Positions 3,456-45,897 of a stretch of DNA of 64,000 bases are shown in pieces. Numbering within the stretch: the stretch's first letter is position 1; every line of letters starts with the position of its first letter. The position numbers and the translations under genes are program-made. Under the pieces are notes generated by a model. The model was not told where the DNA came from and did no database searches. It saw only the letters and a list, made by a program, of their open reading frames with translations. Origin of the DNA: an uncultured virus (IMG/VR IMGVR_UViG_3300029911_000018) (Duplodnaviria; Heunggongvirae; Uroviricota; Caudoviricetes); IMG/VR virus record IMGVR_UViG_3300029911_000018; one strand, written 5' to 3'.

Positions 3456-3543
3456 TGGTCGGGGTGAAGGGACTCGAACCCTCAGTGCGCTTAAGCTCCT
3501 GTTTCCAAAACAGGTCGGCTACCATCTACCGATTTACACCCCG
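3456..3543 (-). tRNA. tRNA-Pro(TGG) with long variable arm
   Basis: CCTGT-TTTGGAA-ACAGG, extra arm GCTTAAGC, CCA. Confidence 0.85.
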
Positions 3544-3645
3544 ATACGACAACATGAACACCGGGGATGAGAAAGTGGAAATTAGGGAAGTTGGAAATCA
3601 ACCCTTCATCACATCCCGGCGTGGCCGCACGGGATGCTGAGGTCT

Positions 3646-3714
3646 CTAGTGGACTTCAGTCCCGTGCAACATAGGGCACGGTCGAAACGAACGGGTTGGT
3701 CGTGTGAAACTCAT
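3646..3714 (-). promoter_or_regulatory. leader peptide upstream of the tRNA-Pro array (probably leaderless mRNA)
   Basis: MSFTRPTRSFRPCPMLHGTEVH (CCA, CCG, CCT); ATG is 6 nt after TATTAT; alternative pairings and a C-rich tract downstream. Confidence 0.65.
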
Positions 3715-3850
3715 ATATACATAATACACAGAAAGTCGGTAAGTTCAAACACTATTTTTGAATATTCTCTATTTTCTTTTTCCACAGGTCGGGAGTATAC
3801 TCTGAACAGCAGGGTCATACCGACCCTCTGGATACCCATGGGAGGATAGT

Positions 3851-4111
3851 ATGAATCTTGAAGACTTCAAAAATCAACTGAGGATGGACATCCGGCGTAT
3901 GCAAGCCGCGTTGGCCGCACTCGAAGGATCAGCAATGGCGGAAACCCCGAAACTATCAGCAAAGACCAAAGAGAAGATTTCCAATAGCATGAAGGCAAAC
4001 TGGGCAGGTGGGCGGAAACGTACCTTATCCAAGGCTGTGAAGATCAAGATCGCGGCCTCACAACGTGCCCGTTGGGCGAAGCAGAAGGAAGCAGCAGCAG
4101 CGGCGGCGTAA
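3851..4111 (+). CDS. small basic protein with repeated KIS..K/R.RW motifs
   Basis: GGAGG RBS; paralog of 4282-4608. Confidence 0.75.
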   Translation: MNLEDFKNQLRMDIRRMQAALAALEGSAMAETPKLSAKTKEKISNSMKANWAGGRKRTLSKAVKIKIAASQRARWAKQKEAAAAAA

Positions 4112-4132
4112 CTTCTCTTAGGTCTTCTTACC

Positions 4133-4165
4133 ACCCCCACAGAGAGTACCTGTGGGGGTTATTTT
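4133..4165 (+). terminator. intrinsic terminator
   Basis: CCCCCACAG..CTGTGGGGG followed by TTATTTT. Confidence 0.75.
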
Positions 4166-4281
4166 ATCCCGTGTCCCTTTTTGACCATACGCCTCACCAA
4201 GCATTAAGTAGACTCCGAAATAACCCGTCGTACAACCTTAACTAGGGGGTTGCATCTGATGGGATTGTAAGAGGAGGATAC

Positions 4282-4608
4282 ATGGATTTTGACGACATTG
4301 TTAACGAACTCAGGGTTCAGCAGCGCCGGATCAATGCGGCTCTTGTTGCTCTTGTGGGGACGGCTCAGGCCGACGCTCCGGTAACACAACCTGCACCAAA
4401 GATCACTGCAACCCCCAACCACCGTACAACCCGTCGTTCTTCAATGTCTTCAGGAGTGAAGCGGAAGATTTCGCTTGCCATGAAGCAGAACTGGGCAAGC
4501 CGGAAGCCTAAGCTCAAGTTGTCGCCGGAAATCAAGAGCAAGATTTCTTCCTCACAGAAGGCACGCTGGGCGTCGATCAAGGCAGCGGCTCAACAGATGG
4601 CAGCTTAG
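4282..4608 (+). CDS. small basic protein, paralog of 3851-4111
   Basis: GAGGAGG RBS; shared AAL.AL.G and Q.ARWA motifs. Confidence 0.75.
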   Translation: MDFDDIVNELRVQQRRINAALVALVGTAQADAPVTQPAPKITATPNHRTTRRSSMSSGVKRKISLAMKQNWASRKPKLKLSPEIKSKISSSQKARWASIKAAAQQMAA

Positions 4609-4697
4609 CTGCTCATTCCACCAAAGTGGACTCTGACCTCCATGAGCAGCTTGCCGAGGATGTTCTCGCCTCGTGGCTCATGGGGGCCTTGCTTACA
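4605..4697 (-). pseudogene. duplicated 3' end of the NADAR gene
   Basis: CKQGPHEPRGENILGKLLMEVR vs CRQGPHEPEGLNHLGRILMEVR in 5212-5709. Confidence 0.8.
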
Positions 4698-4702
4698 TTA
4701 CA

Positions 4703-5164
4703 TTACAGAAACCGCGTCCACTCCCTCGACTTAAGCTGCCAACCCCTGTATGCCTTAATTTTCCCACTCGTAAGTTTGTGAAACTGACGGTAGCTGCTGC
4801 TGTTGATTCGACAAAATTCTTTCAAATTACTCATCTGCACTTCTATTCCATCTGGATTAGTCAAAGTGTAGGTAACTCGATGTTTGGCGTTATGTCTAGC
4901 CTTGTCACTAAGCTGAGTCCCCTTAGCGGGGCGATTTGCTTGCAGAGCTACAAGTGTGACGGCGGGGACGGGGAGCCCTTTGTGTGACTGAGAAAGACGT
5001 TTCTTTCGAGCACCTGAAATCTTTCGCCCCTTAAGGGCTAAGCTAATTTTCTTCCCCACTTCGGGGGAGCACGAACCGGGAGCAGATTCCGTGCGCTTGG
5101 GAGGAAGCGGGATGGATGCGGTCGCGGGAGTGATTTTTGTCCACTGATACATAACTAGCTCCAA
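4703..5164 (-). CDS. NUMOD3-motif protein (homing endonuclease DNA-binding part)
   Basis: KKISLALKGRKIS..KKRLSQSHKG; C-terminal YTLTNPDG..NLKEFCR..YRGW. Confidence 0.7.
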   Translation of the reverse strand: MELVMYQWTKITPATASIPLPPKRTESAPGSCSPEVGKKISLALKGRKISGARKKRLSQSHKGLPVPAVTLVALQANRPAKGTQLSDKARHNAKHRVTYTLTNPDGIEVQMSNLKEFCRINSSSYRQFHKLTSGKIKAYRGWQLKSREWTRFL

Positions 5165-5211
5165 GTATACAGGATGTATCCACCCCTACAATAAGGTGGA
5201 TAGTCGAGTTA

Positions 5212-5709
5212 TTATGCCTGTAATTCCCTTTTACTGTATGTAGAGTAGTATTCGCGAACCTCCATGAGAATCCGACCAAGGTGGTTCAATCCCTCCGGTT
5301 CATGTGGCCCTTGTCTACAAGTCCCATCACACACCCCGAAGAATAGGTCATGCCAATTATTTCCTTCCACCAACTCCGCTGTGAAGGTTGAGATGAGTTT
5401 CCGACGAAGAATAGTTGGGTAGAATTTCTGCATCAGCAAATCCCGCATGATGCCTATGTTCACTTCCTTCCAATCTGGCCGGAGCTTGCCACTGTCTGAA
5501 ATGGCCTTACCCATGCGCTTAGCCCGACCCGCCGTTACCCCGGCGTAGAGAAACTTCTCCCGCTCTTTCAAGTTGAGTGTTTTAGCGGCCTGATACGCAT
5601 GTTCGACTGAAGGATAGGTCACTTCATCCAACACCACACTGCATGGGTAAAAGTTGGAGAGAAACCCCCACGGGTCTTTAAAACGGTCAATCAAAACGGG
5701 CAGGTCCAT
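5212..5709 (-). CDS. NADAR (YbiA-like) family protein
   Basis: FLSNFYP..YPSVEHAYQAAK..LVEGN.W.D.FFG..N.LG.ILMEVR. Confidence 0.92.
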   Translation of the reverse strand: MDLPVLIDRFKDPWGFLSNFYPCSVVLDEVTYPSVEHAYQAAKTLNLKEREKFLYAGVTAGRAKRMGKAISDSGKLRPDWKEVNIGIMRDLLMQKFYPTILRRKLISTFTAELVEGNNWHDLFFGVCDGTCRQGPHEPEGLNHLGRILMEVREYYSTYSKRELQA

Positions 5710-6119
5710 TAGTTCTTCTTTCCTGCAAGGAGCCGGTCAATCTCTCCTGCGTCATCCACATCTTTTACAATACTATGAAACACACATAGTGCATCAGTGG
5801 CTGCTGTAAAAATTCTACATATCTGTGGTCGGTCATCATAAATAGTGCAACGACCGTTCGTCCCGAGCTTTGGACAAGTGAACCATACATGAGCCCGTGT
5901 CCCCTTATGTGTGTGCCCACCAACCTCCAAGGGAATGTAGGGTAGTTTCTCCCTACGCATTGCAGCCTCGGCGTCTTTACGCCAACTATCCACCTTCCAT
6001 GAGCGGTATCGACCAACAGGTGTGGTAAGCATGAACCTCTTGCAACAATGCCCCGGCTCCGGGCATACGCCACAGAGCCGATTAGCTTGATGGTCAATGA
6101 TTGGGAATAGGCTACTCAA
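5709..6119 (-). CDS. YkgJ-like cysteine-cluster protein
   Basis: CxxC..GHCC and CP.L...GRCTIYDDRPQICRIF. Confidence 0.8.
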   Translation of the reverse strand: MSSLFPIIDHQANRLCGVCPEPGHCCKRFMLTTPVGRYRSWKVDSWRKDAEAAMRREKLPYIPLEVGGHTHKGTRAHVWFTCPKLGTNGRCTIYDDRPQICRIFTAATDALCVFHSIVKDVDDAGEIDRLLAGKKN

Positions 6120-6489
6120 GGGCAGTGGCGACCTCGCTAAGGAATTCTTTTGAATCGATGGCCTTGTCCAGCACCTTCACGAGGTTCAGGGGCGGGTAGT
6201 TCTTCAAAACGTTACGTACAAACGAAGGGTCTGAAGAAAACATCAACACCCGCTGTTTGTCATTATTACGGAGCACTCGTCGCATCAACTCGGCTCCATC
6301 CATGTGAGGCATAGACCAATCGCTTAGGACGAGGGTGAAGCCGTCGTTTGACCCACGGTAGGTTGCAAGCCCCTCAACCCCGTCCTGAGCCTCTACAACG
6401 TCAAAACCAGCCCCTTTAAGGATGGTTCCGAAATACTCCCGGCAGTTCTTGTCGTCATCCACTAAAAGTACACGAGTTGATAGATTCAT
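6112..6489 (-). CDS. single-domain response regulator receiver (CheY-like)
   Basis: VLLVDDD..A.DG.EGL..LVLSDWSMPHMDG. Confidence 0.9.
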   Translation of the reverse strand: MNLSTRVLLVDDDKNCREYFGTILKGAGFDVVEAQDGVEGLATYRGSNDGFTLVLSDWSMPHMDGAELMRRVLRNNDKQRVLMFSSDPSFVRNVLKNYPPLNLVKVLDKAIDSKEFLSEVATALE

Positions 6490-6638
6490 ATCCTCGGCCT
6501 CTTCAAAATAGCTTCACGCTGCTCCAGCGTCCAATACCCCAAGTCAAACTCTGCCTTCGTAATAGAGATGAATTTTGGTTGTTCATGTGCGTAGTTAAGT
6601 GAATAGCCTTCCCGGTCTTCTGTCACCCCCACGATGAA

Positions 6639-6857
6639 TCAACCCTTTCCTGTAGCCTTGACTCCCCGTGAACGGAGAGATGAATCCAGAGACTGTTCCT
6701 TAATAGCCGCGTCGGAGAACACCAGACCATACCTATCCCCAAAGATGGCGGTAGCAAGACGTACAGCCTTGTACATATCCCGGAGGTATACCATCTCTTC
6801 GTCAGTGAGGTGGTCACCCATGGCGAACGCTTGAATAAGAGCACGAGGTTCTTTCAT
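6639..6857 (-). CDS. hypothetical protein
   Basis: ATGA overlap with the upstream ORF. Confidence 0.55.
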   Translation of the reverse strand: MKEPRALIQAFAMGDHLTDEEMVYLRDMYKAVRLATAIFGDRYGLVFSDAAIKEQSLDSSLRSRGVKATGKG

Positions 6858-7197
6858 GCTCCATCCCGCTTCCCAGACTTTCCATCCGCAATACCGCGCT
6901 CGTAGGAGATTCGCATGGTTTGCTGAAGCACCATGTTAACGGCATCCCGAAGGCTCCGGCCAGCACCAAGCTCCATGAGAATGTAGCCGGTCCAATAGTT
7001 GAGCAACTCGACAAAAGACATCTCTTCCAGAGTCTTTTCGTGAGACGACTTACTTGCCTTTGGCATGGGTTCCCTTCTTGGCCTCGTTGACGGCCTTGGC
7101 GACAACACGAGTCGCCTTGGTGGTGTCACGACGGGCGTGCCCCTTGATGGGAGTGTTGCACTCAGCGCAGCGGGTGGATTTGGGCATCGTAAGTCTC

Positions 7198-7431
7198 CTA
7201 GTAGTTTTTGTGGGCGTCCCAGCCGCCACCTTCGTAGTCAATCTCTTCCTCGCGGTGTGAGAAACTACCCCGCAGGAGAGCCGCGTACTGCCCTGTTCGT
7301 TGTTCCTGCTTGACTGCCTTGCAGGATTTAGAGCAAAACCGAGCCCATCCGCGTTTGACATCAGCGAAACGAGCAGTGAAAGACTTACCACACTGCTTGT
7401 TCTCGCATTTACGCTCAACTCGCGTTGGCAT
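7198..7431 (-). CDS. small Cys-rich phage protein
   Basis: C...CGK.F..R.AD.KRGW.RFCSKSCK; GAGG RBS; promoter TATACT upstream. Confidence 0.7.
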   Translation of the reverse strand: MPTRVERKCENKQCGKSFTARFADVKRGWARFCSKSCKAVKQEQRTGQYAALLRGSFSHREEEIDYEGGGWDAHKNY

Positions 7432-7529
7432 CTATTACCTCACACACTCAGTATACCGGGAGTATAGAGGTTTTGGATAGTATTTTAGGGAATTTTTTTA
7501 TGGGTAGGTAGCAAAGCAAAGTCGCACCC

Positions 7530-7943
7530 TTATTTCAGCTTATCTCGTACAACCTTATCAGGTGACAACCCATCTTGCCGGTAGTCCTCTAATAGAGCCA
7601 GAGAGTAATCGGCGATAGTAGTGTTAGAGCAATCACCCCAAACCTCAATAATCAATTCGGCGACTCTTTTATACCACGCTATCTTATCCATCTCATTCCT
7701 GACTTCACGAAGCCTATGAATGAAGGAGCGTTTGTCCAGTTCAATAGCCCCAAGCATTACAGCAACGGCACGCCTTGGTCTGAGCAAATCGTAGTGAGGG
7801 AACGATGTCGGCTGGAACCATTGCCTCTTCATACCGATAGCATCCGCCATGGCGTGAAGCTCATCTATAGTATCCGCAATCATGTGGCAAGCATACTTCC
7901 ATCGGCCATACTGTACTTAACGGATTGGATCGACATAAACCAT
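7530..7943 (-). pseudogene. DUF4031 family gene with in-frame TAA at codon 9
   Basis: MVYVDPIR*VQYGRWKYACHMIADTIDELHAMA..IGMKRQWFQ..HYDL. Confidence 0.7.
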
Positions 7944-8362
7944 TAAGCAGGTATAAACGGCTGGTTCTTTTGTTCCCAGCCGTAGCAAAGATCACATTCG
8001 CAACAGAAGCCCTCTTCATCGTGCTCCTCGGCCAAATGTCCACATCTACAGACACGCCTGACGTATCGGGAGCATCCTGTGTCGTGTCCTCCCCGTAAAT
8101 CGCGTTCACATTCTCCGCACTCAAGCCCCACGTGTTCTCCGAAGATGGTTCACCCACACTTGTTTCGCAGCATCCCTCATCGCGTTACGAGTGTCAATGC
8201 AGCTATCGCAACCATAGCTTTTAGGCCCACCACCACATTCAGGACAACAGTCACAAGAGGGAATATCATCCTCAAAAGGGTCTCTGCAAAACTGACAAGC
8301 ACGTCTAATGGTCACCGGCATTTTTCTTATCCCTCACACTGTAAAATTCATTACCATGCATG

Positions 8363-8698
8363 TTAATACCCTAAATCCTCACCTCTCCAAGCATACAAAT
8401 CATCAATAGCCAACTCATCCAGTCGGCCTATATTCTTGGCTCCGAAGTTTGGGGTTTGGGCATGACAGTTGGGACACAGAAAACGGATGTTATCCGGTTC
8501 ATTGTTCAGCCAGTCGCCATCAATGTGGTCGATTTGAAGAACAATCGGTCGGCCTATCCATTCAGGGTTTTTGTGTAAGGGACATCTAGGATCAGAGCAC
8601 CGATAGGGGACACCTGATTCCAACATAGCCCGTCGCAAGCGAGTCACATGCTCTCGATGTTTCTTGCGATTCCTAACTAGAATCTGGCTCCAGTGCAT
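8363..8698 (-). CDS. HNH endonuclease
   Basis: LQIDHIDGDWLNN...NIRFLCPNCHAQT. Confidence 0.85.
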   Translation of the reverse strand: MHWSQILVRNRKKHREHVTRLRRAMLESGVPYRCSDPRCPLHKNPEWIGRPIVLQIDHIDGDWLNNEPDNIRFLCPNCHAQTPNFGAKNIGRLDELAIDDLYAWRGEDLGY

Positions 8699-8710
8699 TC
8701 ATTGTAATAC

Positions 8711-8798
8711 TGGTACCCGACCCCGGACTCGAACCGGGAACCGCATTTCGCTTCTCGGGAGTTTAAGCCCCGCGCCTTTGCCATTTGACCAGTCGGGC
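8711..8798 (-). tRNA. tRNA-Leu(TAA)
   Basis: CGGGG-CTTAAAC-TCCCG, long variable arm, CCA. Confidence 0.9.
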
Positions 8799-8805
8799 AT
8801 AACTT

Positions 8806-8894
8806 TGGTCGGGAAGGTGGGACTTGAACCCACAACCGTTTCACACTTATCGAGTGTTTGAGACTCGCGCCTTTGCCAATTTGACCACATCCCG
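8806..8894 (-). tRNA. tRNA-Leu(CAA)
   Basis: CGAGT-CTCAAAC-ACTCG, long variable arm. Confidence 0.9.
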
Positions 8895-9010
8895 ATTTGA
8901 AACTATTGGAGACCAGTTACTCAATCGCCTTGGCGTGTATCTCGCCTACCACAGCTTTCGCCAGTCATACGGGGATCAGCGTACGTCCGTTTCACAGACT
9001 TATCCAAATT

Positions 9011-9097
9011 TGGTGCGCCCGAAGGGACTCGAACCCATACCCCCTTGCGGGGATTAGCACCTCAAGCTAACGCGGCTACCAATTACGCCACGGGCGC
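9011..9097 (-). tRNA. tRNA-Leu(GAG)
   Basis: TTAGC-TTGAGGT-GCTAA. Confidence 0.92.
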
Positions 9098-9158
9098 AAA
9101 CTTCTACTACAACAAAACTTGGTGCTTCACATTCTTACCACAAGTGCCTGTGCCAGAA

Positions 9159-9236
9159 TGGTAGCCGAGGTGGGATTCGAACCCACACTGTACGGATTTT
9201 GAGACCGTTGCCTCCTGCCAGTTGCGCTACTCGGCC
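9159..9236 (-). tRNA. tRNA-Leu(CAA), short variable loop
   Basis: ACGGT-CTCAAAA-TCCGT, CCA. Confidence 0.85.
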
Positions 9237-9251
9237 ATTACATCAAAACTT

Positions 9252-9335
9252 TGGTAGCCCCACTCGGACTCGAACCGAGACGCCTTTCGACATTAGTTCC
9301 TAAGACTAACGTGTCTGCCATTCCACCATGGGGCC
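9252..9335 (-). tRNA. tRNA-Leu(TAG)
   Basis: TTAGT-CTTAGGA-ACTAA. Confidence 0.92.
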
Positions 9336-9343
9336 GTTAAAAC

Positions 9344-9574
9344 CTATCGCTCCGTACGCTGCGTCTTCGGAAGGTCGAGACCCCAGCCACGCTGGATATT
9401 CTCGGAGTCCTGACGCATGTACACAGCCGCAACTTTCCATTCACCACTCTCGGGCTCATCCTTCAGGGTGATAACAGAGCCGCGCTTCACACCTCGGTTA
9501 GCGGGAACCCACGCCACCTTACAGTGAATACCGCGTTCTGACTCTTGCTGCAACATTGTTTGAACTAATTCCAT
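9344..9574 (-). CDS. hypothetical protein
   Basis: 76-aa ORF (MELVQ..) between tRNAs. Confidence 0.55.
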   Translation of the reverse strand: MELVQTMLQQESERGIHCKVAWVPANRGVKRGSVITLKDEPESGEWKVAAVYMRQDSENIQRGWGLDLPKTQRTER

Positions 9575-9591
9575 TTCTTTCTCTTTCTTTA

Positions 9592-9679
9592 TGGTGCCCG
9601 GAGAGGGATTCGAACCCCCACGAGAATTAACCCACTGGCTTCTAAGACCAGCGCGTCTCGCCAATTTCGCCATCCGGGC
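9592..9679 (-). tRNA. tRNA-Leu(TAG)
   Basis: CTGGT-CTTAGAA-GCCAG. Confidence 0.92.
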
Positions 9680-9684
9680 ACATC

Positions 9685-10323
9685 TTAAATTCGACCCCTT
9701 CTCCATCCAATCAAAACGTAAGAGGTCAAATCGTTTTGCTTAATCTTGATGGCTCTTTCACCGTCCGTTACCCAACGAGTACCGAACTGTGAATTCTTAT
9801 CCCCCGCTCTATTCACCAATGCCATCTTTGCTTTGGTGTCCGCCCTGTGCTTCCGACCAGTCCAAGTGCGTTTACTCGCCGCTGAAATCTTAGCTGACAC
9901 ATCCGGTTCAACACCATGTTCCCTAATCTGGTTGGCCCGAGCCTCACTCATCATCTTGTAATGCTGTGGGTCTCGATGACTCTGAGAACTGTGTGACACT
10001 CTGGCGGCATTGGCGTAGTCGGCCAACCCTTCTCGATTGATATAGTCAAACCCACCAGAGCCCCCTTTTCTCAAATTCATACAGAGAGGGTTACCCCGCC
10101 AACATTGAATCAACTCATCCTCTTTGCCAAATGCTGATTCAACATCGAGGTAGATGAACAGGACTTCCTTATGGAAGTTTTGTTCCCCATATTTTGCAAC
10201 GGCTCGTTTGATGTATGTACCGGAACCGAGGTACGCATCATCAGGGTCTTTCGTTTTGTGAACCCCGAAGTAGAACTTGCCGTTGAGCAGGTTGACGGTT
10301 TTGTAAACCGTGTAGTATGTCAT
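9685..10323 (-). CDS. GIY-YIG (Seg-like) homing endonuclease with NUMOD3
   Basis: VYKTVNLLNGKFYFGVH..YLGSG..KYGEQNF.KE..MNL..GG.GG. Confidence 0.9.
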   Translation of the reverse strand: MTYYTVYKTVNLLNGKFYFGVHKTKDPDDAYLGSGTYIKRAVAKYGEQNFHKEVLFIYLDVESAFGKEDELIQCWRGNPLCMNLRKGGSGGFDYINREGLADYANAARVSHSSQSHRDPQHYKMMSEARANQIREHGVEPDVSAKISAASKRTWTGRKHRADTKAKMALVNRAGDKNSQFGTRWVTDGERAIKIKQNDLTSYVLIGWRRGRI

Positions 10324-10368
10324 GAACCTATCAGTGCCCTCTACATAAGATACTGATAATCACGAATG

Positions 10369-10453
10369 TGCATGGAGTAGGATTTGAACCTACGTAGCCC
10401 CAAGGGGCGGGTGTTTTACAGACACCTAGTTTTAACCACTCACTCATCCATGC
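10369..10453 (-). tRNA. tRNA-Tyr(GTA), no encoded CCA
   Basis: GGTGT-CTGTAAA-ACACC, long variable arm. Confidence 0.9.
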
Positions 10454-10460
10454 AAACTTT

Positions 10461-10553
10461 TGGTGCGTCCGACAGGATTTGAACCTGTTGTGTTTACCGC
10501 TTGGGTGCCGAGTTTACAGCCCGGTGCCACTCCCCCGTCGTGACCGCGAACGC
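10461..10553 (-). tRNA. tRNA-Tyr(GTA), unusual D arm
   Basis: CCGGG-CTGTAAA-CTCGG, CCA. Confidence 0.82.
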
Positions 10554-10554
10554 A

Positions 10555-10716
10555 TTACTGCTTCGGAACATGTTGAAGATGAAGTGTACGCACAGCCTCA
10601 AGGTTACGCTGTGCTGCTTCTCTCGTAGTTCCCGAGGTCACCAGACCCCAAGTTCTATCTTCAGCCACCCAACGCTTTGTTTCCGCGTCGAGCCAAAATT
10701 GTTCCGTTTCAAACAT
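10555..10716 (-). CDS. orphan HicB-like antitoxin domain (53 aa)
   Basis: MFETEQFWLDAETKRWVAEDRTWGLVTSGTTREAAQRNLEAVRTLHL; GGAG RBS. Confidence 0.6.
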   Translation of the reverse strand: MFETEQFWLDAETKRWVAEDRTWGLVTSGTTREAAQRNLEAVRTLHLQHVPKQ

Positions 10717-10724
10717 CTTTCTCC

Positions 10725-10754
10725 AAAAACAAAAGCCGCCCCAATCGGGGCGGC
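10725..10754 (-). terminator. attenuator terminator
   Basis: GCCGCCCC-GATT-GGGGCGGC-TTTTGTTTTT. Confidence 0.9.
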
Positions 10755-10780
10755 TTCGTGATTCATCTGAACTTTGGGGT

Positions 10781-10873
10781 TTAGATTGAGCCCCCTTCAG
10801 ACGACACGAAGCCGTTGCTAAGCAGGTAATACAAGCTTAGGCTAAGGTTCGAGTTGACTGATAAGCGGTTCAT
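10781..10873 (-). promoter_or_regulatory. Leu/Tyr leader peptide with antiterminator
   Basis: MNRLSVNSNLSLSLYYLLSNGFVSSEGGSI; 10790-10814 is complementary to 10751-10779. Confidence 0.85.
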
Positions 10874-11012
10874 ATTCTTCCTCTCGGGCAGTGCCCGTTT
10901 CACATCTGTATACATAATACCGCGAAAGTTGAGGTTTTCAACACTGTTTTTGAATTTATTTTCATAGCTTATGGATTTTTCACTTTCCACCTCCTCTGTA
11001 GGAGGGTTTGAC

Positions 11013-11756: not shown

Positions 11757-11757
11757 C

Positions 11758-12431: not shown

Positions 12432-12452
12432 TATTTACGTGTCTCCTCAACT

Positions 12453-16029: not shown

Positions 16030-16417
16030 CTATAGACCTCAGTAACGAGGTCCATAGTTCTTTTTCTTGATAGCTATCCAAGGATTTCCATCGCTTTTCA
16101 ACAAGAACAGTGACAGCCACGATTAGCTTGAACAAGGAACCGTCATCTTTTCCCTCTAGTTGTGCTTGTTTGGCGTAGTTAATGGCGTCAAGCATTTCCT
16201 GCCCGAGGTCAGTAAAAACATCACGACCGTTGAACGCCCTCAAGCGAGAGCCGTACTTTTTCTCCCCCATACGAATTCGCGCTTCAATATCGTCAGCAAG
16301 GGAATCAAGCTGCATTGAGCGCAGGGCGAGGGCGGCTTCAACAGCGATATCTACGCCATTTCCAGTGGGGTTGGGTTGTATCTTAGTGGCTAAGTCAACA
16401 GTAGGGTCTAGGGGCAT
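16007..16417 (-). CDS. conserved phage protein (G.KKYG..E.LDA..Y motif)
   Basis: R..MGEKKYG..QEMLDAINY. Confidence 0.6.
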   Translation of the reverse strand: MPLDPTVDLATKIQPNPTGNGVDIAVEAALALRSMQLDSLADDIEARIRMGEKKYGSRLRAFNGRDVFTDLGQEMLDAINYAKQAQLEGKDDGSLFKLIVAVTVLVEKRWKSLDSYQEKELWTSLLRSIDEILKTK

Positions 16418-39314: not shown

Positions 39315-39390
39315 TGGTGTCGCCGATGGGAATCGAACCCACCATCATCTGATTGAAAGTCAGAGGTCCAGACCGATAGACGGCGGCGAC
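39315..39390 (-). tRNA. tRNA-Glu(TTC)
   Basis: TCTGA-CTTTCAA-TCAGA, CCA. Confidence 0.88.
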
Positions 39391-39444
39391 AAACTTAAAT
39401 CCGGGTGCCTTACGTTGACTCCTCGATACACGAAACTCATAACT

Positions 39445-39559
39445 TGGTGCCGGGGTAGGTATCGAAGCCTACAAACTCACAAAACCCGTTCGCATAAACG
39501 GGCATACTTTGTGATGCCTATGGATGCCTCCAGCGAATCTACCAATTCTTCCACCCGGC
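39445..39559 (-). ncRNA. tRNA-Leu-like RNA with no normal anticodon and a giant variable arm
   Basis: GCCGGG/CCCGGC-A-CCA, GAATTGGTAGA D loop, ~40-nt extra hairpin. Confidence 0.65.
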
Positions 39560-39565
39560 GTAGCT

Positions 39566-39641
39566 TGGTGCCCTCGGTAGGAATCGAACCTACGACTTCT
39601 TCCGTGTGAAGGAAGCACTCGTACCGCTGAGTTACGAGGGC
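39566..39641 (-). tRNA. tRNA-Val(CAC)
   Basis: CTTCC-TTCACAC-GGAAG. Confidence 0.92.
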
Positions 39642-39650
39642 GAAACTTAT

Positions 39651-39835
39651 TCTCAAGGAGGGGCATCGAACCCCCATCTCCGCCACGAACGGGCGGTGTC
39701 CTTACCGCTTGTCACTCCGACATCAGAGGCTATTACTAGCTTGGTGCTGACGGAACCCAGTTACATGCTGCTCAGTATATCGACAGCGGAGCAACATTTA
39801 CCCGTCATTGCTCTGCCATGTTAGACGACCTTGAA
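39651..39835 (-). tRNA. tRNA-Glu(TTC)-like gene interrupted by a ~110-nt insertion in the D loop
   Basis: TTCAAGG/CCTTGAG acceptor; GTCT..GGAC D stem; CCGCC-CGTTCGT-GGCGG. Confidence 0.65.
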
Positions 39836-39838
39836 ACT

Positions 39839-39913
39839 TGGTAGCCCTAGAGGGAGTCGAACCCTCATTCTCACCTTGAAAGGGTGCCTTCCTAGCCGTT
39901 AGAAGATAGGGCC
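39839..39913 (-). tRNA. tRNA-Glu(TTC)
   Basis: CACC-CTTTCAA-GGTG. Confidence 0.9.
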
Positions 39914-39933
39914 ATAAACTACCACCGATTACT

Positions 39934-40009
39934 TGGACGCGGAGACGAGGATTTAACTCGTGTCTCAACCTTTGCAGGGTCGCGCCTGATTCGCCTCGGC
40001 CACTCCGCA
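39934..40009 (-). tRNA. tRNA-Cys(GCA)
   Basis: CGACC-CTGCAAA-GGTTG, U73. Confidence 0.82.
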
Positions 40010-40346
40010 TTAAAAACTCTTGCTTCTGCTGGCACACAGGCCGCACAAAGGTGCTTTGCCTCGTGCTTGAAACTCTGTCCCGACCCCGTCTCGAAAACTA
40101 CAGTGAAGCCAATATCATCGAAGTGTGGGCACTCTGGTATACCTTCCAACTTGCAGAACTCCGATAGTTCATAAGCCATCACCATCGTGATCCTCAGGGT
40201 GGTAAGCATCCCACACTTTCAATACCGCAATCAAAACAAAAATACCAATCAAAACGAAAAAAGTTCCAACATCAACGTGCCCGGTGAAACCATACTCGGG
40301 AGTCCATGGTGCTTGCATAGTAGACCTCTACTATGCTTCTCATATT

Positions 40347-40421
40347 TGGTAGCCCTACGGGGTGTCGAACCCCGGTTGTCAGGTTGAGAACCTGCTTTCC
40401 TAACCGCTAGAAGATAGGGCC
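40347..40421 (-). tRNA. tRNA-Glu(CTC)
   Basis: CAGG-TTCTCAA-CCTG. Confidence 0.9.
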
Positions 40422-40432
40422 AAACTACAAAC

Positions 40433-40519
40433 TAGTGACGAGTGAAGGATTCGAACCTTCGTTCCCGCCCTTCGCATAAAGCTACTAAGCGAGTTTTTAG
40501 GCCACTAAAGTAACCCGTC
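40433..40519 (-). ncRNA. tRNA-like RNA with ~13-nt anticodon loop
   Basis: GACGGGT/ACTCGTC acceptor, GAAGG-TTCGAAT-CCTTC T arm. Confidence 0.6.
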
Positions 40520-40827
40520 AAACTGGAGCCGAGGGGGCGTGGTTATCCGCCACGGGATTTCCCTTACTCGGCATAAACTCGATTAACTGCGTCCGTCTTC
40601 ACTTTACTAGCCACCCGCCAAGGTCATGGTTGGGGAAGCAACTTTCGCTAGAGCTATCTTGGTGACCCCTACTCTTCCTTTCGGTACCATGGGTATGGGT
40701 CAGAGCCCATAAATCACCGCAGCCTTCACAGCGTGACAAAGCGACTTGCCACTTACGCACTAAGATACACCGTGTTCTGTAATCACACTATGCACTGTGA
40801 AACTTGGTGGATGTGACAGGAGTCGAG

Positions 40828-41040
40828 CTACACACCCAAAACCTCTTCTACCGCTTCATCAACGGTGGCGATGGCAATCACTTTGCCAGTTTCTGTCGTT
40901 CTCGGCCACCGTAGTTTACCTATGCATTCATCACCCTTATACACGCAGATACTGTACTTCCCGCTTCTCTCACCATCGTTCTCACATAGTGATAAAGTCG
41001 GGTCTTTCGAAATTGCAATTACTGCGTCAATAAAAGTCAT
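40828..41040 (-). CDS. hypothetical protein
   Basis: ATGA-coupled small ORF inside the tRNA array. Confidence 0.55.
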   Translation of the reverse strand: MTFIDAVIAISKDPTLSLCENDGERSGKYSICVYKGDECIGKLRWPRTTETGKVIAIATVDEAVEEVLGV

Positions 41041-41219
41041 TCACCCTCATCCACCAACTCAACCAAGAGTTGTATAGCTTCAATCTCGCGGTCTCCAACC
41101 TGTGAGACCTTACCTGTTACTGTGTCCGTGACCTTGAGCGGCCATTGCTTTGCCTTGATGTCGGCGATGCTGACAGTCGGACAGCTTACTAACGTGAACT
41201 CAGGTACACTATACTTCAT
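41037..41219 (-). CDS. hypothetical protein
   Basis: Small coupled ORF. Confidence 0.5.
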   Translation of the reverse strand: MKYSVPEFTLVSCPTVSIADIKAKQWPLKVTDTVTGKVSQVGDREIEAIQLLVELVDEGE

Positions 41220-41402
41220 TCAATCCACACTTCTCACAAAGGTCAGGGTCGTCTTCATCGCTGAGTGGTGCCTTACAACTCAAGCACCGCTTGTATGTGT
41301 CGGGCTCTTCCAACCCCGCGTACCACGGACTGCAAATACATTCACCCACACAAACATCGTTTTCGCAAACCGCGTTGAACTTCATCTCTTCCTAACTATT
41401 CA

Positions 41403-41506
41403 TGCAACAGGTGGGATTCGAACCCACGGCGTCCATAACAATCCGCCAGCGATATAGGCCCTTAACCATGAGACGTGGAATGCTCTACCAACTGAGCTAC
41501 CATTGC
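41403..41506 (-). ncRNA. tRNA with ~40-nt anticodon-loop region (intron-like insertion)
   Basis: Perfect D arm TAGCTCAGTTGGTAGAGC and T arm GTGGGTTCGAATCCCAC. Confidence 0.7.
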
Positions 41507-41606
41507 ACAAACTTGGTGGACGCAGGGGACTTGGCACCCCATCGCTCGGCGTTACCACTATGGACGCCCACATTTCAATTCCTTAAGCCGAGTTCCGGAC
41601 TTAACT

Positions 41607-41685
41607 TGGTGGAGCTATGGGGACTCGAACCCCACTGGATTCCTCATTGCGAATGAGGTGAACACCCCCGGCATTCCCTAGCCCC
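41607..41685 (-). tRNA. tRNA-Ala(CGC)
   Basis: G3:U70, CCTCA-TTCGCAA-TGAGG. Confidence 0.88.
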
Positions 41686-41769
41686 AAACTTTCGGGAGGA
41701 GAGGTTCTACGCATCTCACACGTTGAGAGCAAATCCCCTCTATCTCCCTGCATCTGTCAGACTGTCGTG

Positions 41770-41837
41770 TAGACACGGAGAGATTCGAACTCTCATTTCC
41801 CCTCGATAGGGGCGTCCTACCATTAGACGACGAGCCT
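41770..41837 (-). pseudogene. degenerate tRNA (Glu-like body, 6-nt loop)
   Basis: TCGTCTAATGGTAGGAC D arm; CCCC-TATCGA-GGGG; normal T arm. Confidence 0.55.
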
Positions 41838-42445
41838 CAGCCCGACAAACCCTTAACCCAAACACTTACCGAACTCTTTGCAACCCCGAGTAAAGCTGCG
41901 ATTTGGGCTTTACAAATTCCTTGTTCAAACAACTCCTGCGCTTTCATTCGTTCAACCGCTTTTATATTTCTCAACCTTGCGGCGGCGGAGCCTATCGCTG
42001 ATAATCCTCTTTGCTTTGCCATCTCCGATGACCCACGAGCGCCACTACGATTGAAATTGTTGCGAATCATATCCCGATAGTTAGCGTCTGTCTTCCAACG
42101 CTCCGCGCTGTTAGTCCTATTGGCCGCTCGAACCCTCCACCCTTGGTTGGGTTGCTGATTTATCCAGTCGAAGCCACCACTCCCACCTTGTCTCAGGTTG
42201 TAGCACAAAGGGTCGGCTCGATACGTTTCAATCAGTTCGTATTCTTTAGCAAATGCCTCCCCTGAGTTGTCGAAGATGAAGCACACGTTCTTTATGAACG
42301 ACTGCTCACCGTGCTTACGAATCGCCGCCTTCAGAACCTTACCTGACCCAAGGTACCCGTCGTACGGGTTCTTGGTTTTGTGGACGCCGAAGTAATACTT
42401 TCCGTTCACCAAATTCTGTGTTCGATACACTGTGTAAAATATCAT
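41837..42445 (-). CDS. GIY-YIG (Seg-like) homing endonuclease, C-terminal HTH
   Basis: Nuclease domain paralogous to 9685-10323; AQIAALLGVAKSSVSVW. Confidence 0.9.
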   Translation of the reverse strand: MIFYTVYRTQNLVNGKYYFGVHKTKNPYDGYLGSGKVLKAAIRKHGEQSFIKNVCFIFDNSGEAFAKEYELIETYRADPLCYNLRQGGSGGFDWINQQPNQGWRVRAANRTNSAERWKTDANYRDMIRNNFNRSGARGSSEMAKQRGLSAIGSAAARLRNIKAVERMKAQELFEQGICKAQIAALLGVAKSSVSVWVKGLSG

Positions 42446-42511
42446 GAACCTATCAGCCTCTCAGGTTTCTGAGGACTTAACCTCTACTAAAGAGGTTGAT
42501 AGTCACGAATG

Positions 42512-42584
42512 TGCGCCTTGTAGGAATCGAACCTACGGTCCCTTCCATGTCAAGGAAGTGCTCTAGCCGCTGAGCCAAAGGCGC
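42512..42584 (-). tRNA. tRNA-Val(GAC), no encoded CCA
   Basis: CTTCC-TTGACAT-GGAAG. Confidence 0.9.
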
Positions 42585-42658
42585 AAAACTAGTTAGCGGC
42601 TGCAAGCGCGTCCGTCCTGCATTTAATCCCTAAACCTGAGGGAACCACACTTTAAAGT

Positions 42659-42735
42659 TGGCGGGGACGACGGGGCTCGAACCCGCGACCTCTACCGTGA
42701 CAGGGTAGCGTTCTAACCAACTGAACTACATCCCC
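42659..42735 (-). tRNA. tRNA-Asp(GTC)
   Basis: CTACC-CTGTCAC-GGTAG, G73. Confidence 0.93.
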
Positions 42736-42745
42736 AACTTCAAAC

Positions 42746-42820
42746 TGGCGGAGACGGCGAGGGTTGAACTCGTATATTCTTCCGTGACAGGGAAGCCCAT
42801 TGCCATTATGGTACGTCTCC
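42746..42820 (-). tRNA. tRNA-Asp(GTC)
   Basis: CTTCC-CTGTCAC-GGAAG, G73. Confidence 0.85.
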
Positions 42821-42914
42821 TCAAGGGTGTGTTCCGCAGCTTTTAGTTCTCACTGCAAGCCCTAAGCCCGTGCGCCTTTGTGCGGTACGACGTTAGGTGC
42901 TACCCTTTGAAACT

Positions 42915-42990
42915 TGGCGGGGCTGATGGGACTCTAACCCACGATAGACGGCTCGACAAGCCGCTGCATTAGACGCTATGCTACAACCCC
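42915..42990 (-). tRNA. tRNA-Asp(GTC)
   Basis: GCGGC-TTGTCGA-GCCGT, G73. Confidence 0.82.
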
Positions 42991-42991
42991 T

Positions 42992-43172
42992 TGGTGGACG
43001 TGTCGTGCCGCTTACGCTGTCATTTAACGACCGGGTACCTCATCTCTCTAATTACGAGTGTGCTGTTCAACTGCACACACCCATACGATTTGAGCTACCA
43101 CAACAGTGTCGTTCAGTAGAGCCATTTGGCTGGATTGTTCATACCCGAAGGGAACTCTCCGGCATCACATCC
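42992..43172 (-). ncRNA. ~180-nt structured RNA ending in ACCA
   Basis: GGATGTG/CACGTCC and TGCCG/CGGCA closing stems; CGGGTAT/GTACCCG inner stem. Confidence 0.5.
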
Positions 43173-43184
43173 TCTACTAAAATT

Positions 43185-43260
43185 TGGTGGACCTAGAGGG
43201 GATTGAACCCTCGACTTCTTCCATGCCATGGAAGCACTCTCCCACTGAGTTACAGGCCCC
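43185..43260 (-). tRNA. tRNA-Ala(GGC)
   Basis: CTTCC-ATGGCAT-GGAAG, G3:U70. Confidence 0.93.
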
Positions 43261-43267
43261 TAAAACA

Positions 43268-43477
43268 TCAAAACCTTTTGCCACTGTTCAGCATATTTAT
43301 CCTTTCTAATACCGAGGGCTCCGTCAACAGCAGACGTAAATTCTCATTCGGCTGTGTTGGCCTTTCCAACATTGCAACAAACTCTTGCCACTGCTCAGGA
43401 CTGAGGCGAATGTTGTTCTCTTCACCAGCCAGTCGGGTATGAACGCTTCTCATGTCGGCATCGAAGTTAATCTTCAT
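43268..43477 (-). CDS. orphan DUF1778/TacA-like antitoxin C-terminal domain
   Basis: IRLSPEQWQEFVAMLERPTQPNENLRLLL; AGGAG RBS. Confidence 0.7.
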   Translation of the reverse strand: MKINFDADMRSVHTRLAGEENNIRLSPEQWQEFVAMLERPTQPNENLRLLLTEPSVLERINMLNSGKRF

Positions 43478-43493
43478 CGCTCTCCTTTCAAAT

Positions 43494-43569
43494 TGGAGGC
43501 GATGATGGGATTCGAACCCATGCATAACGGTTTTGCAGACCGCCGCGTTAACCACTTCGCCACATCGCC
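43494..43569 (-). tRNA. tRNA-Cys(GCA)
   Basis: GCGGT-CTGCAAA-ACCGT, U73. Confidence 0.93.
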
Positions 43570-43587
43570 TATAACACCAACAAAACT

Positions 43588-43661
43588 TGGAGCGGATAGT
43601 CAGATTTGAACTGACGGTGACAGGGTGGAAGCCTGTTGCCTTACCGCTTGGCTATACCCGC
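43588..43661 (-). tRNA. tRNA-Gly(TCC)
   Basis: ACAGG-CTTCCAC-CCTGT, U73. Confidence 0.9.
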
Positions 43662-43667
43662 TTTGAA

Positions 43668-43802
43668 TCAGAGATATTTTCGTACCTCCAGTGGTCCGAA
43701 TCGGTAGCTCTCATATGAGCTACATCCCCACATAAGAGAACTGTTCAATCGGAAGGTCTTTCCAAAAGACCAACTCCGCCACCAGAAATAGTACCTCCAC
43801 AT
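43668..43802 (-). CDS. 44-aa aromatic-rich microprotein
   Basis: GAGGAG RBS; MWRYYFWWRSWSFGK.. Confidence 0.45.
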   Translation of the reverse strand: MWRYYFWWRSWSFGKTFRLNSSLMWGCSSYESYRFGPLEVRKYL

Positions 43803-43887
43803 ATCTCCTCAATTTCTCGACGCCTCTCCGCCGTGCCACACCACTTTAGTCCGCAGGACTCGGTAGGTGTCACCCCGCTTAAAACTC

Positions 43888-44283
43888 TGCACTAGACTTA
43901 TAGCCGGAGTTCTGTCCAGAGGGTTACCCCTCCTGTACAATCATTCGTCTCGGCCAGCCGTTACCGTCTGGCTCTAGCCCCCAACCCGCCGATTCATAAC
44001 GGTACGAGCAGTACCTGTCGGCCTATTTGAGGTTGCACCGCGTAGAGATTGCCCGTTTCACCCGAATTTAATCGGCTCGTCTCTGTTGCTCTAATCGTCA
44101 CACTCAACATCGGACGGGTTGTTCCCATAGGGTTGGTGGAAATCAACCAGACGTATAGCTGCGTCCCCTTACGCTACGTCCCCGAACAAGTGTGCTAGGG
44201 TGTTACCCTATACGCTGCTCTGTGGTGCTCCGAACTTCCTCGAAGTGGTATTGCGCCACGTCGCGATTGTCCAGTCTAGTGCA
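43888..44283 (-). ncRNA. rnpB: RNase P RNA
   Basis: P1 TGCACTAGACT/AGTCTAGTGCA; P4 halves GAGGAAGTTCGGAGC and ACAGAACTCCGGCTATA; GCAACAGA, GGGTGAAACGG, GGTAAC loop. Confidence 0.92.
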
Positions 44284-44310
44284 TACTTAATGAAACCGAG
44301 GCCGAAGCTG

Positions 44311-44655
44311 TTACTGTACTGCCGACGTGCGCTGTACTGCCACGCTACGAAGGTAAGCACGCATCTCGTCCGAGAACTCATTGAACATCTCACCCTTATC
44401 CAACCAGTGCAAAATGGTCTCCCAGTTCTCTTCCTCAGGCGTCCACTGACCCTCCAAGCCGTAGCAAGAGCAGTGACCGCCACTTACTGAGAACAGCTTC
44501 CCGTCCTTCTCGAACAGAACGAATGCCGAACCCGAATAGTCCTCGTAGCTATACACCGCTGCGTAGACCAACGCATCCTTCAATTCATCCTGACCAATAT
44601 TGAACTGGTCGCATACATCCTCAACGCTGCCGAACCTATCTACAAATACTTCCAT
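44311..44655 (-). CDS. conserved phage hypothetical protein
   Basis: Y..EDYSG.A.VLF..DGKL..V.G.HCSCYGLEGQW. Confidence 0.7.
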   Translation of the reverse strand: MEVFVDRFGSVEDVCDQFNIGQDELKDALVYAAVYSYEDYSGSAFVLFEKDGKLFSVSGGHCSCYGLEGQWTPEEENWETILHWLDKGEMFNEFSDEMRAYLRSVAVQRTSAVQ

Positions 44656-44724
44656 CGTTTTCTCCTTGTGGTACAAACCATCGAGAGAAACGGTGAGGTA
44701 ATTGTTCGACCTCGGTTTCAAATT

Positions 44725-44803
44725 TGGTGGACCGTCAGAGATTTGAACTCTGCTGATATTCTGTGTGCAAGACAGATAAACACTCCTAGCATTTCCACGG
44801 CCC
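44725..44803 (-). tRNA. tRNA-Ala(TGC)
   Basis: TCTGT-CTTGCAC-ACAGA, G3:U70. Confidence 0.85.
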
Positions 44804-44940
44804 AATATTGTCAAACATCATGTAATCACCGGCTGGCCGGGATTAAAAATCTTGGTGGCTTTGGCTCACGCCGGGGCACCACCCGCGCCCCTCGAAGTAA
44901 ACTTACCCAGTCTTGTGGACTGGAGTCTTGCTCCAGAGCT

Positions 44941-45015
44941 TGGAGCGGCTGGTGGGATTCGAACCCACGACCTCTTCCTTGGCAAGGAAGCGTTCTACCA
45001 CTGAACTACAGCCGC
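44941..45015 (-). tRNA. tRNA-Gly(GCC)
   Basis: CTTCC-TTGCCAA-GGAAG. Confidence 0.93.
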
Positions 45016-45045
45016 ATATACTTCAATACTGCAAAAACCAAAACT

Positions 45046-45121
45046 TGGTGCTCCAAGTGGGACTCGAACCCACGATAGTCTGCTTGTAGGGCAGATGATT
45101 TAGCCGCTAATCTACCGGAGC
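45046..45121 (-). tRNA. tRNA-Val(TAC)
   Basis: TCTGC-CCTACAA-GCAGA. Confidence 0.9.
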
Positions 45122-45133
45122 AATCTTTACTGC

Positions 45134-45165
45134 AAAAACGAAAGGCCAGCCTTTTCGGCTGGCCT
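45134..45165 (-). terminator. attenuator terminator
   Basis: AGGCCAGCC-GAAAA-GGCTGGCCT-TTCGTTTTT. Confidence 0.9.
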
Positions 45166-45185
45166 CGGTTTCGATTTCAGACTGG

Positions 45186-45329
45186 TTAGTTAGTCTTAAT
45201 CTCTCCCGAGGCCATGGTATCCTCTCCCGCGCAACCGGCTTCAGCGGCTGCGACAGCTACGACTACGCCCACGACGCCAGTGTTCGGTGCGTCCATGGTG
45301 TTAATCGAAATGTTGGTACGGATAGTCAT
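45186..45329 (-). promoter_or_regulatory. Val/Ala/Gly/Glu/Asp/Cys leader peptide with antiterminator
   Basis: MTIRTNISINTMDAPNTGVVGVVVAVAAAEAGCAGEDTMASGEIKTN; TGGCCTCGG (45206-45214) pairs with the terminator 5' arm. Confidence 0.88.
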
Positions 45330-45897
45330 GGTGTTTGTCCTTCTGTTACATAATACGCAGAAAGTTGAAATTTGTGCAAGCTGTTTTTCATTTATTTTCA
45401 CAGCTTATGTTTCAACCCACGCACCTGTACAAGGTGAAATTCCTCGGTGTGCTGCCTGTGTTGCACCACCCAAACTCGGCTTGACGTTAGTCTGGAACCG
45501 GACCATCGAACCCGGTATCTCCGAGGAACCCATAAACTGAGAGTACCACCACCCCGTTGTGGAAATCAACCCCCATGTGCCTTACGATAACCATCGGCTA
45601 TCGAATTCAACAATGAAATGGATTGGCCTTTTGTCTCCACTTTCACTTTCCGGGTTCGAGGTTCCCGCCTGCAAACGATACTTCACCCTCGAATACCCCG
45701 CCAGTTGCTTCCCAAGAAGTATCACCTCATTCATAATACACAATTCAGAGGTGCTAACACAACCAAATTTGAAAACTCCCGAGGGAGGGACGGTTCAGTC
45801 AGGTTTATCTGTGCCGTCCAATCCTTCCCGAAACCCTTGCGGGTTTGCGTACCTGACGAATTAAATCCATAGTACACCAACGAGGAAGAAACCGCAA

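Follow-up and report, generated by a model that had tools for sequence, protein, structure and literature searches.

Among the attenuators of enterobacteria, the thr leader, with its Thr and Ile codons, and the ilvGMEDA and ilvBN leaders, with codons for Ile, Leu and Val, are multivalent; the pheST attenuator, with its pheM leader, controls phenylalanyl-tRNA synthetase, and the T-box binds uncharged transfer RNA (tRNA) directly, with no open reading frame (ORF) or ribosome involved, and controls synthetases and transporters. A related arrangement is described here for 64,000 nucleotides (nt) of DNA from an uncultured virus of the Caudoviricetes (IMG/VR record IMGVR_UViG_3300029911_000018), the whole of which is referred to as the window. 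Three arrays of tRNA genes are each preceded by a promoter and a short ORF, and it is probable that leader-peptide (ribosome-mediated) transcription attenuators gate these tRNA genes of the phage itself. The original prediction, made from the letters of the DNA, had already seen an attenuator layout of the trp/his/ilv/pheST type; computation supports this reading, and diverged relatives keep the layout while their antiterminators show compensating changes.

As in the thr and ilv leaders, regulatory codons for several amino acids are gathered in a short ORF near the promoter, and an intrinsic terminator competes with an antiterminator, the choice between them presumably being decided by the position of the ribosome. 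Differently from thr and ilv, the phage leaders precede tRNA genes and not biosynthetic enzymes, so that the product is the molecule sensed; roughly one codon is present in the panel for each isoacceptor, with as many as 13-15 kinds for 6-9 amino acids, and these codons do not occur in runs, which also sets these leaders apart from those of his and pheA. Moreover, the phage design uses two hairpins, the antiterminator being the one that encloses the stop codon, and its folds predict readthrough without any translation, unlike the thr and ilv leaders and unlike trp-type superattenuation. The pheST attenuator is similar in that leader-peptide attenuation acts on a component of the translation apparatus, but its target is a synthetase, a single amino acid is sensed and the gene is that of a host. 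The Escherichia coli tRNA-Phe gene pheV was checked for a leader as well and proved to start from a plain promoter, with none present. The T-box shares with the phage units a terminator/antiterminator switch that reads a specific tRNA state and target genes related to translation; in the window no T-box match was obtained at the Rfam gathering level and no leader family is found among the 30 gathering-level Rfam matches, the best weak leader match in a scan of 10300-10950 being Phe_leader, with 24.5 bits against a cut-off of 55 and confined to the terminator.

Phage tRNA sets are reported to counter tRNA-targeting defence, such as that exerted by PARIS AriB (PMC12409363), and the arrays described here resemble them in being phage-borne and in that tRNA supply during infection is at stake; the accessible parts of such accounts, however, treat which tRNAs are carried and how cleavage is escaped. 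Full-text literature searches, with subscription journals largely outside their reach, returned no account of leader-peptide control of tRNA genes in phage or cell, in agreement with the earlier statement that none was known for phage tRNA operons.

ARAGORN identified 31 tRNA genes in the window, all on the minus strand, as are the other features of the window given below; they are sorted into arrays by amino acid, as had been predicted. The largest array (39315-45121), designated GAVDEC, serves Gly, Ala, Val, Asp, Glu and Cys with 17 tRNAs of 13 anticodon species. Two further Rfam tRNA matches within it (41403-41506 and 41770-41837) were not called by ARAGORN, the first of which, with its 104 nt, may contain an insertion or an intron; a full-length RNase P RNA of bacterial class A (43885-44282, 162.5 bits in Rfam) lies in the same array. 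The second array (8711-10453) comprises six tRNA-Leu genes and a tRNA-Tyr gene at the head of the block. The third (2982-3540) is a Pro array with anticodons UGG (twice), GGG and CGG and one tRNA (3177-3252) with an odd anticodon call, since ARAGORN assigns it four letters (gttg); Rfam scores it as a tRNA with 49.9 bits. Two tRNA-Met genes (271-347 and 984-1060) complete the inventory.

The three arrays start from a shared promoter. The motif GTATTATG occurs five times in the window, always on the minus strand, at 1191, 3720, 10913, 45349 and 45732, whereas 1.12 copies are expected and five were reached in 0/100 shuffles. The common motif at the three arrays had been foreseen, one of its positions (45350-45357) being off by one nucleotide (45349-45356). 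At 3720, 10913 and 45349 it is embedded in a longer common promoter of sigma70 type, made of an A-rich upstream part, TTGNAN, a spacer of 16-17 nt and TATTAT. The GAVDEC promoter (45350-45378; motif 45349-45356) has TGCACA as -35 element, 17 nt and TATTAT, with an A-rich stretch upstream, and is also present in relatives; the Leu/Tyr promoter (10914-10941; motif 10913-10920) reads TTGAAA, 16 nt, TATTAT, and the Pro promoter (3721-3748; motif 3720-3727) TTGAAC, 16 nt, TATTAT. Among the additional copies of the -10 motif, one (45732-45739) lies upstream of the GAVDEC promoter, is followed by about 380 nt with no ORF and possibly represents a tandem promoter; the fold of the ORF-less stretch 45385-45725 is unremarkable (z -1.39), and no Rfam match was found at 45340-45760, permissive thresholds included. 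The other (1191-1198) is upstream of the tRNA-Met gene at 984-1060.

Each promoter-to-tRNA interval of the three arrays contains one substantial ATG ORF. The GAVDEC leader ORF (45186-45329), of 47 codons plus stop (MTIRTNISINTMDAPNTGVVGVVVAVAAAEAGCAGEDTMASGEIKTN), has an AAGGA Shine-Dalgarno sequence 9 nt upstream, and its core is a series of about 22 consecutive GNN or TGC sensor codons that specify the six amino acids served by the array and no others. The Leu/Tyr leader ORF (10781-10873), of 30 codons plus stop (MNRLSVNSNLSLSLYYLLSNGFVSSEGGSI), is preceded by the Shine-Dalgarno sequence GAGAGGAAG and includes six Leu codons of five kinds and two Tyr codons, which are the two possible ones. 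The candidate Pro leader ORF (3646-3714), of 22 codons plus stop (MSFTRPTRSFRPCPMLHGTEVH), carries three Pro codons, CCA, CCG and CCT. A Shine-Dalgarno sequence is also found in most of the leaders of relatives. For the codon match, each leader was compared with 200,000 random segments of the same length taken from long ORFs of the same DNA, the joint P being the fraction of segments that equalled or exceeded the leader in array-readable codons and also in coverage by exact complements. In the GAVDEC leader 25/46 codons are array-readable and an exact-complement codon is present for 13/13 anticodon species (joint P 0/200,000); the joint P of the Leu/Tyr leader is 0.0062. The predicted enrichment of each short ORF in the codons of its own array thus holds for these two leaders, and the Pro leader, for which it did not reach significance, is considered below.

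Two overlapping structures follow the sensor codons. In the GAVDEC unit the antiterminator (45160-45214) has its 5' arm, UGGCCUCGG, in the last leader codons, its stop codon in apical position and a 3' arm, CCGAGGCCA, which overlaps the 5' arm of a canonical intrinsic terminator (45133-45166; hairpin 45166-45142) formed by a 10-bp stem, GAGGCCAGCC/GGCUGGCCUU, and a U-tract. The antiterminator fold has -27.7 kcal/mol and z -6.64 and was matched by 0/200 shuffles; the first tRNA begins 11 nt past the terminator U-tract, too close for a separate promoter in between. Likewise, the Leu/Tyr antiterminator (10751-10814; -35.0 kcal/mol, z -7.01, matched by 0/200 shuffles) encloses the stop codon and shares part of its 3' arm, CACGAAGCC, with the 5' arm of a canonical terminator (10723-10757; hairpin 10757-10732) with an 11-bp stem, GAAGCCGCCCC/GGGGCGGCUUU, and a U-tract. 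In the minimum-energy folds of both units the antiterminator draws its 5' arm from the final codons of the ORF, and its 3' arm coincides with the outer portion of the 5' terminator arm. The overlapping arms of these two units bear out the mutually exclusive antiterminator and terminator that had been proposed for two of the arrays. Downstream of its terminator, the Leu/Tyr unit (8711-10716) consists of an ORF of 53 amino acids (10558-10716, weak DUF7387 match), a tRNA-like stretch, tRNA-Tyr (10368-10453), an ORF of 212 amino acids and the six tRNA-Leu genes (8711-9679). The degenerate tRNA-like stretch (10464-10554) scores 18.5 bits with the tRNA-Sec model, below the cut-off, and stands where relatives carry a second tRNA-Tyr. 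In the Pro unit two overlapping hairpins are found (3612-3670): the stop codon lies within the first (3624-3670), whose 3' arm, AUCCCGUGC, is shared in part with the 5' arm of the second (3612-3636, CAUCCCG/CGGGAUG); this second hairpin was read from the sequence. The z value of the Pro hairpin is -4.17 in the window and -3.07 in its relative G006, and conservation continues past the stop codon.

Relatives were found by scanning viral contigs with parts of the leaders and fetching the records behind the matches. The GAVDEC leader is thus available in six distinct versions (window, L019, L020, L021, G006 and G007), the Leu/Tyr leader in three and the Pro leader in two, and a Thr/Ile/Gln leader, outside the range of the window, in two. 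In four GAVDEC versions the sensor core is nucleotide-identical and the flanks are diverged, and in G006 and G007 the cores are rearranged and still list the codons of the array; the identity of the Leu/Tyr core across versions is due to the search, because these versions were retrieved with a 20-mer of the core. The leader ORFs remain open across versions and their indels are in frame, a coding signature. Compensating changes are seen at the base of the GAVDEC antiterminator, CCUCGG:CCGAGG in the window and L020 versus CCUCUGG:CCAGAGG in L019 and L021, the inner antiterminator stems vary in sequence with pairing kept, and the terminator stem of L021 shows a compensatory change from G-C to A-U. 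When nascent transcripts were folded, a stop-enclosing hairpin that sequesters the 5' arm of the terminator appeared in 6/6 GAVDEC versions and in 6/8 other leaders, and in a seventh (G003) when the segment was folded alone; antiterminator z values range from -3.07 to -7.01 in 13/14 segments. Canonical terminators are also present in relatives, and in several units the first tRNA lies 0-12 nt past the U-tract (window GAVDEC, L029, L030, GAVDEC of G006 and of G007, and array A of the phage Tunturi_5, described below), so that there is no room for a separate promoter.

The Thr/Ile/Gln leaders (MRLTNQTRITTTTQTSVLRPRVFVRI and MRLSAQTRITTTTTQTSVCGFVCGGIED; the G003 leader begins MRLTNQTRITTTTQTSV) contain all four Thr codons, CAA and ATT/ATC, and the arrays behind them code for tRNAs for Thr (UGU, CGU, GGU), Gln (UUG) and Ile (GAU); the joint P of the G003 leader is 0.0009. 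Their 5' untranslated regions show three to four consecutive hairpins with GNRA-type loops (GAGG-GAAA-CCUU and similar) between promoter and Shine-Dalgarno sequence (L022, about 16230-16400, minus strand; L035, about 5480-5640, minus strand). The G006 homologue of the Pro leader is an in-frame ORF with six Pro codons. Other searches were less productive: a metagenome search with the leader peptide returned two loci only, both identical to the window; blastn of the leader regions against a collection of cultured phages gave matches to tRNA genes of unrelated phages only; a search with the ORF neighbouring the Pro leader found no relative; and in a promoter-pattern scan of viral contigs, which yielded 14 stretches, promoter, leader and tRNA array were found together only in L011, which is the same as the window, and in L016, the rest looking like chance. 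Xanthomonas phage XbC2, considered for comparison, was set aside as not comparable, its tRNAs being scattered unsorted among ORFs.

The original prediction had proposed to compare leader content with array content in related phages, and the two do covary, including in a distant cultured phage. Tunturiibacter phage Tunturi_5, which has a genome of 308.7 kb and a host of the Acidobacteriota, was found through a tail protein of the window (32% identity). Its tRNA genes form three arrays, among which the amino acids are partitioned differently from the window, and before each there is a short ORF followed by a terminator, again of canonical type. Array A (Leu, Cys, Tyr, Ser) has a leader that begins MKTLCLSSYCLSSSLSLS (joint P 0.00011); array B (possibly Asn, then Gln, Gly, Thr, Pro, His, Ala and Phe) one that begins MQHVSTFRFAVPATAGNPAGQQGTNA (joint P 0/200,000); and the leader of array C (Trp, Asp, Met, Lys, Val, Arg, Glu, Ile, Gly) corresponds to the annotated hypothetical gp308, beginning MKQILKQLGHDFDIRGKRGVVVDTWDITIRGERKWSDVRDMR (joint P 9e-5). 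Cys codons follow the Cys tRNA, being found in the GAVDEC leader in the clade of the window and in leader A, as two TGC, in Tunturi_5. In general, the own array is the best match of a leader among the arrays of the same genome, the Pro leader excepted. Over 15 leader/array pairs, with anticodons as called by ARAGORN, the own leader contains a readable codon for 126/130 anticodon species and an exact complement for 113/130. According to the Tunturi genome paper there are 43 tRNA genes, and its available text contains neither "leader" nor "attenuat". Anatomy, codon/anticodon match, conservation and covariation are all direct observations, and the association of leaders with their arrays is real and beyond chance.

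These features suggest the following mechanism, in which the leader ORFs are presumably translated. Each unit starts at a strong promoter of host type, and its transcript opens with a short ORF holding about one codon per downstream anticodon species. Judged from geometry, formation of the antiterminator is expected to depend on ribosome position: when the panel is read fast, the ribosome would already have reached the stop codon and be covering the upstream hairpin arm by the time the polymerase makes the terminator, which would then form and keep the array off; a delay at any panel codon, or a failure of translation, would leave that arm free, the antiterminator would form and transcription would read through into the array. 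The likely trigger would be a falling supply of the panel tRNAs, as produced by rising phage demand, host shut-off or a tRNA-cleaving defence; the findings fit plain feedback on tRNA supply as well as a response to such a defence. Since the products of an array would read its own panel, each array would be under negative feedback from its output, and the sorting of tRNAs into arrays would follow from each array being one regulatory unit. A bolder formulation, which we advance as a tentative idea and would not expect to hold in full, is that every sorted array is one feedback-controlled regulon, whose leader ORF lists a codon for each isoacceptor of the array; when any of these is lost, also when an anticodon nuclease of the host cleaves it, the ribosome on the leader would stall and the whole replacement set would be opened, so that distant phage lineages would possess a codon-resolved sentinel of tRNA supply.

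Several observations weigh against attenuation as described here. The Pro leader is weak: 3/21 codons are readable, with a joint P of 0.065 (range 0.065-0.09), which is not significant; its ATG is 7 nt past the -10 hexamer and lacks a Shine-Dalgarno sequence, because of which it is probably translated leaderless; and the second hairpin of this unit is followed by no canonical U-tract and is therefore no canonical terminator. No Met-rich or codon-matched leader is present in the tRNA-Met promoter region at 1191, and in G006 a lone tRNA-Phe gene (L037 5600-5830, plus strand) with a leader-like promoter, a 16-codon ORF (MNPIYPTPGARFTETL) and a hairpin that has the stop codon in its loop contains one Phe codon only and no codon match. 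The sensor codons occur in single or few copies per leader and not in runs, and sensitivity to one tRNA may therefore be low. In G006 and G007 Gly-CCC tRNAs stand at the array ends and the leader has no GGG codon. Leu/Tyr leaders are rich in Ser (8/30) and Asn, and the Thr/Ile/Gln leaders of L022 and L035 carry surplus Arg codons, with no Ser or Asn tRNA and no Arg tRNA, respectively, seen in their arrays; such surplus codons may be left over from an earlier state or may serve to read host tRNAs. In Tunturi_5, Ser tRNAs do belong to the Leu/Tyr array.

The structural evidence has exceptions as well. The antiterminator of Tunturi_5 A is no better than shuffles (z -0.77), that of G003 is missing from the minimum free energy fold of the full transcript, and that of the Leu/Tyr unit has an internal mismatch in 2/3 versions. 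A partition-function model of ribosome masking gave the expected trend in the two leaders of the window and in L020, but it was noisy and its definition of terminator pairs included extra pairs, so that its result is not relied on. Furthermore, the arrays, which reach 6 kb in length and include ORFs, could hold internal promoters; promoter-like sites are not commoner than in shuffles. As to RNA, parts of 44000-46000 are contained in 12 RNA-library runs, and in the four that were compared, which are peat metatranscriptomes, exact contigs cover the RNase P RNA as well as the spacer next to it, as far as about 44709; these contigs span the array interior and leave the leaders uncovered, allowing no inference on termination. 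The exact contigs of the RNase P RNA (43885-44282) come from RNA libraries of four studies.

Attenuation by the leader peptides may also be genuine and ribosome-dependent and yet report general translation status or amino-acid charging instead of phage tRNA supply, with the codon match serving only to ensure reading by the same pool. Classical attenuators respond to charged tRNA and not to tRNA amount, the folds default to the antiterminator when no ribosome is present, so that any translation failure would open the arrays, and single or few copies of each sensor codon favour a summed signal over the sensing of a single tRNA. A general sensor, however, does not need one codon per anticodon species, yet the exact complements are complete in the GAVDEC leader and readable codons nearly so over all pairs; nor would its panel have to change with the way in which tRNAs are divided among arrays, as is observed. 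This explanation is therefore considered unlikely, although it is the strongest competitor.

A further explanation regards promoter, short ORF and terminator as a self-contained gene for a small peptide, with a stop-codon hairpin that stabilises the small mRNA, and the arrays as expressed constitutively through leaky readthrough or from promoters of their own. Indeed, the GAVDEC peptide, rich in Gly, Ala and Val, and the Leu/Tyr peptide, rich in Leu and Ser, resemble hydrophobic segments; regulated termination is not seen in the data, and the long ORF-bearing arrays leave space for internal promoters. Conversely, the Thr/Ile/Gln leaders and that of Tunturi_5 C are polar or charged and still match their arrays, and no Pfam family was found for the three leader peptides of the window. 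A peptide function does not explain the coverage of every isoacceptor at codon level, nor nucleotide-identical sensor cores beside diverged flanks; the 3' arm of the hairpin overlaps the 5' arm of the terminator in every version, and the first tRNA often lies 0-12 nt past the U-tract. Such a gene is thus quite improbable as an account of these loci. Finally, a codon match arising by chance, or as a by-product of local composition beside tRNA genes, is very improbable, since, even if the Pro leader alone is within chance and the G006 tRNA-Phe mini-ORF is unmatched, six independent leaders have joint P values from 0.0062 to 0/200,000, a cultured phage that is only distantly related shows the same pattern with unrelated leader sequences, and the different versions agree in their ORFs, in where the stop codon stands and in pairing.

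The leader-peptide attenuators that probably gate the arrays lie in a genome of the large tailed phage type, judging from window proteins such as ribonucleotide reductase, a DnaB-like helicase, a UvsX-like recombinase and a lytic tail protein; among the virus records available, the nearest to the window is a 67-kb fragment rated 21% complete. The anti-toxin cargo that had been anticipated for the arrays is not evident: the ORFs within them are homing endonucleases of the HNH and GIY-YIG types, and those beside them encode RF-1-domain, NADAR, receiver and DUF4031 proteins. Specifically, an ORF with GIY-YIG and helix-turn-helix domains, similar to homing endonucleases (41837-42445, minus strand), is inside the GAVDEC array, and another homing-endonuclease-like ORF, with a weak HNH_3 match (8363-8698, minus strand), was assigned to the tRNA arrays. 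Proteins with a NADAR domain, a response-regulator receiver domain and DUF4031 are encoded between the Pro and Leu arrays (5212-5709, 6112-6489 and 7530-7883, respectively, minus strand), and an RF-1-domain protein just downstream of the Pro array (2052-2639, minus strand). Relatives carry a tRNA with CUA anticodon, amber-reading and labelled "Pyl" by ARAGORN (L022 17917-17994; L035 7324-7397), and a transfer-messenger RNA (L023 3021-3340; L035 11375-11775); together with the RF-1-domain protein, these genes hint at manipulated stop-codon reading or ribosome rescue.

If attenuation operates as proposed, tRNA genes would represent a new class of target for leader-peptide attenuation, by a mechanism that is otherwise the textbook one, and, as the sensed molecule is the regulated product, a direct homeostat for tRNA supply would result. 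The design offers a reason why some large phages sort their tRNA genes by amino acid and suggests that, in the arms race over tRNA, phages meter their tRNAs by demand and do not simply express them constitutively. As it also occurs in Tunturi_5, a phage that is in culture together with its host, Tunturiibacter psychrotolerans X4BP1, it is directly testable; the leaders themselves would be compact, natural and codon-specific sensors, and may serve as reporters of decoding speed.

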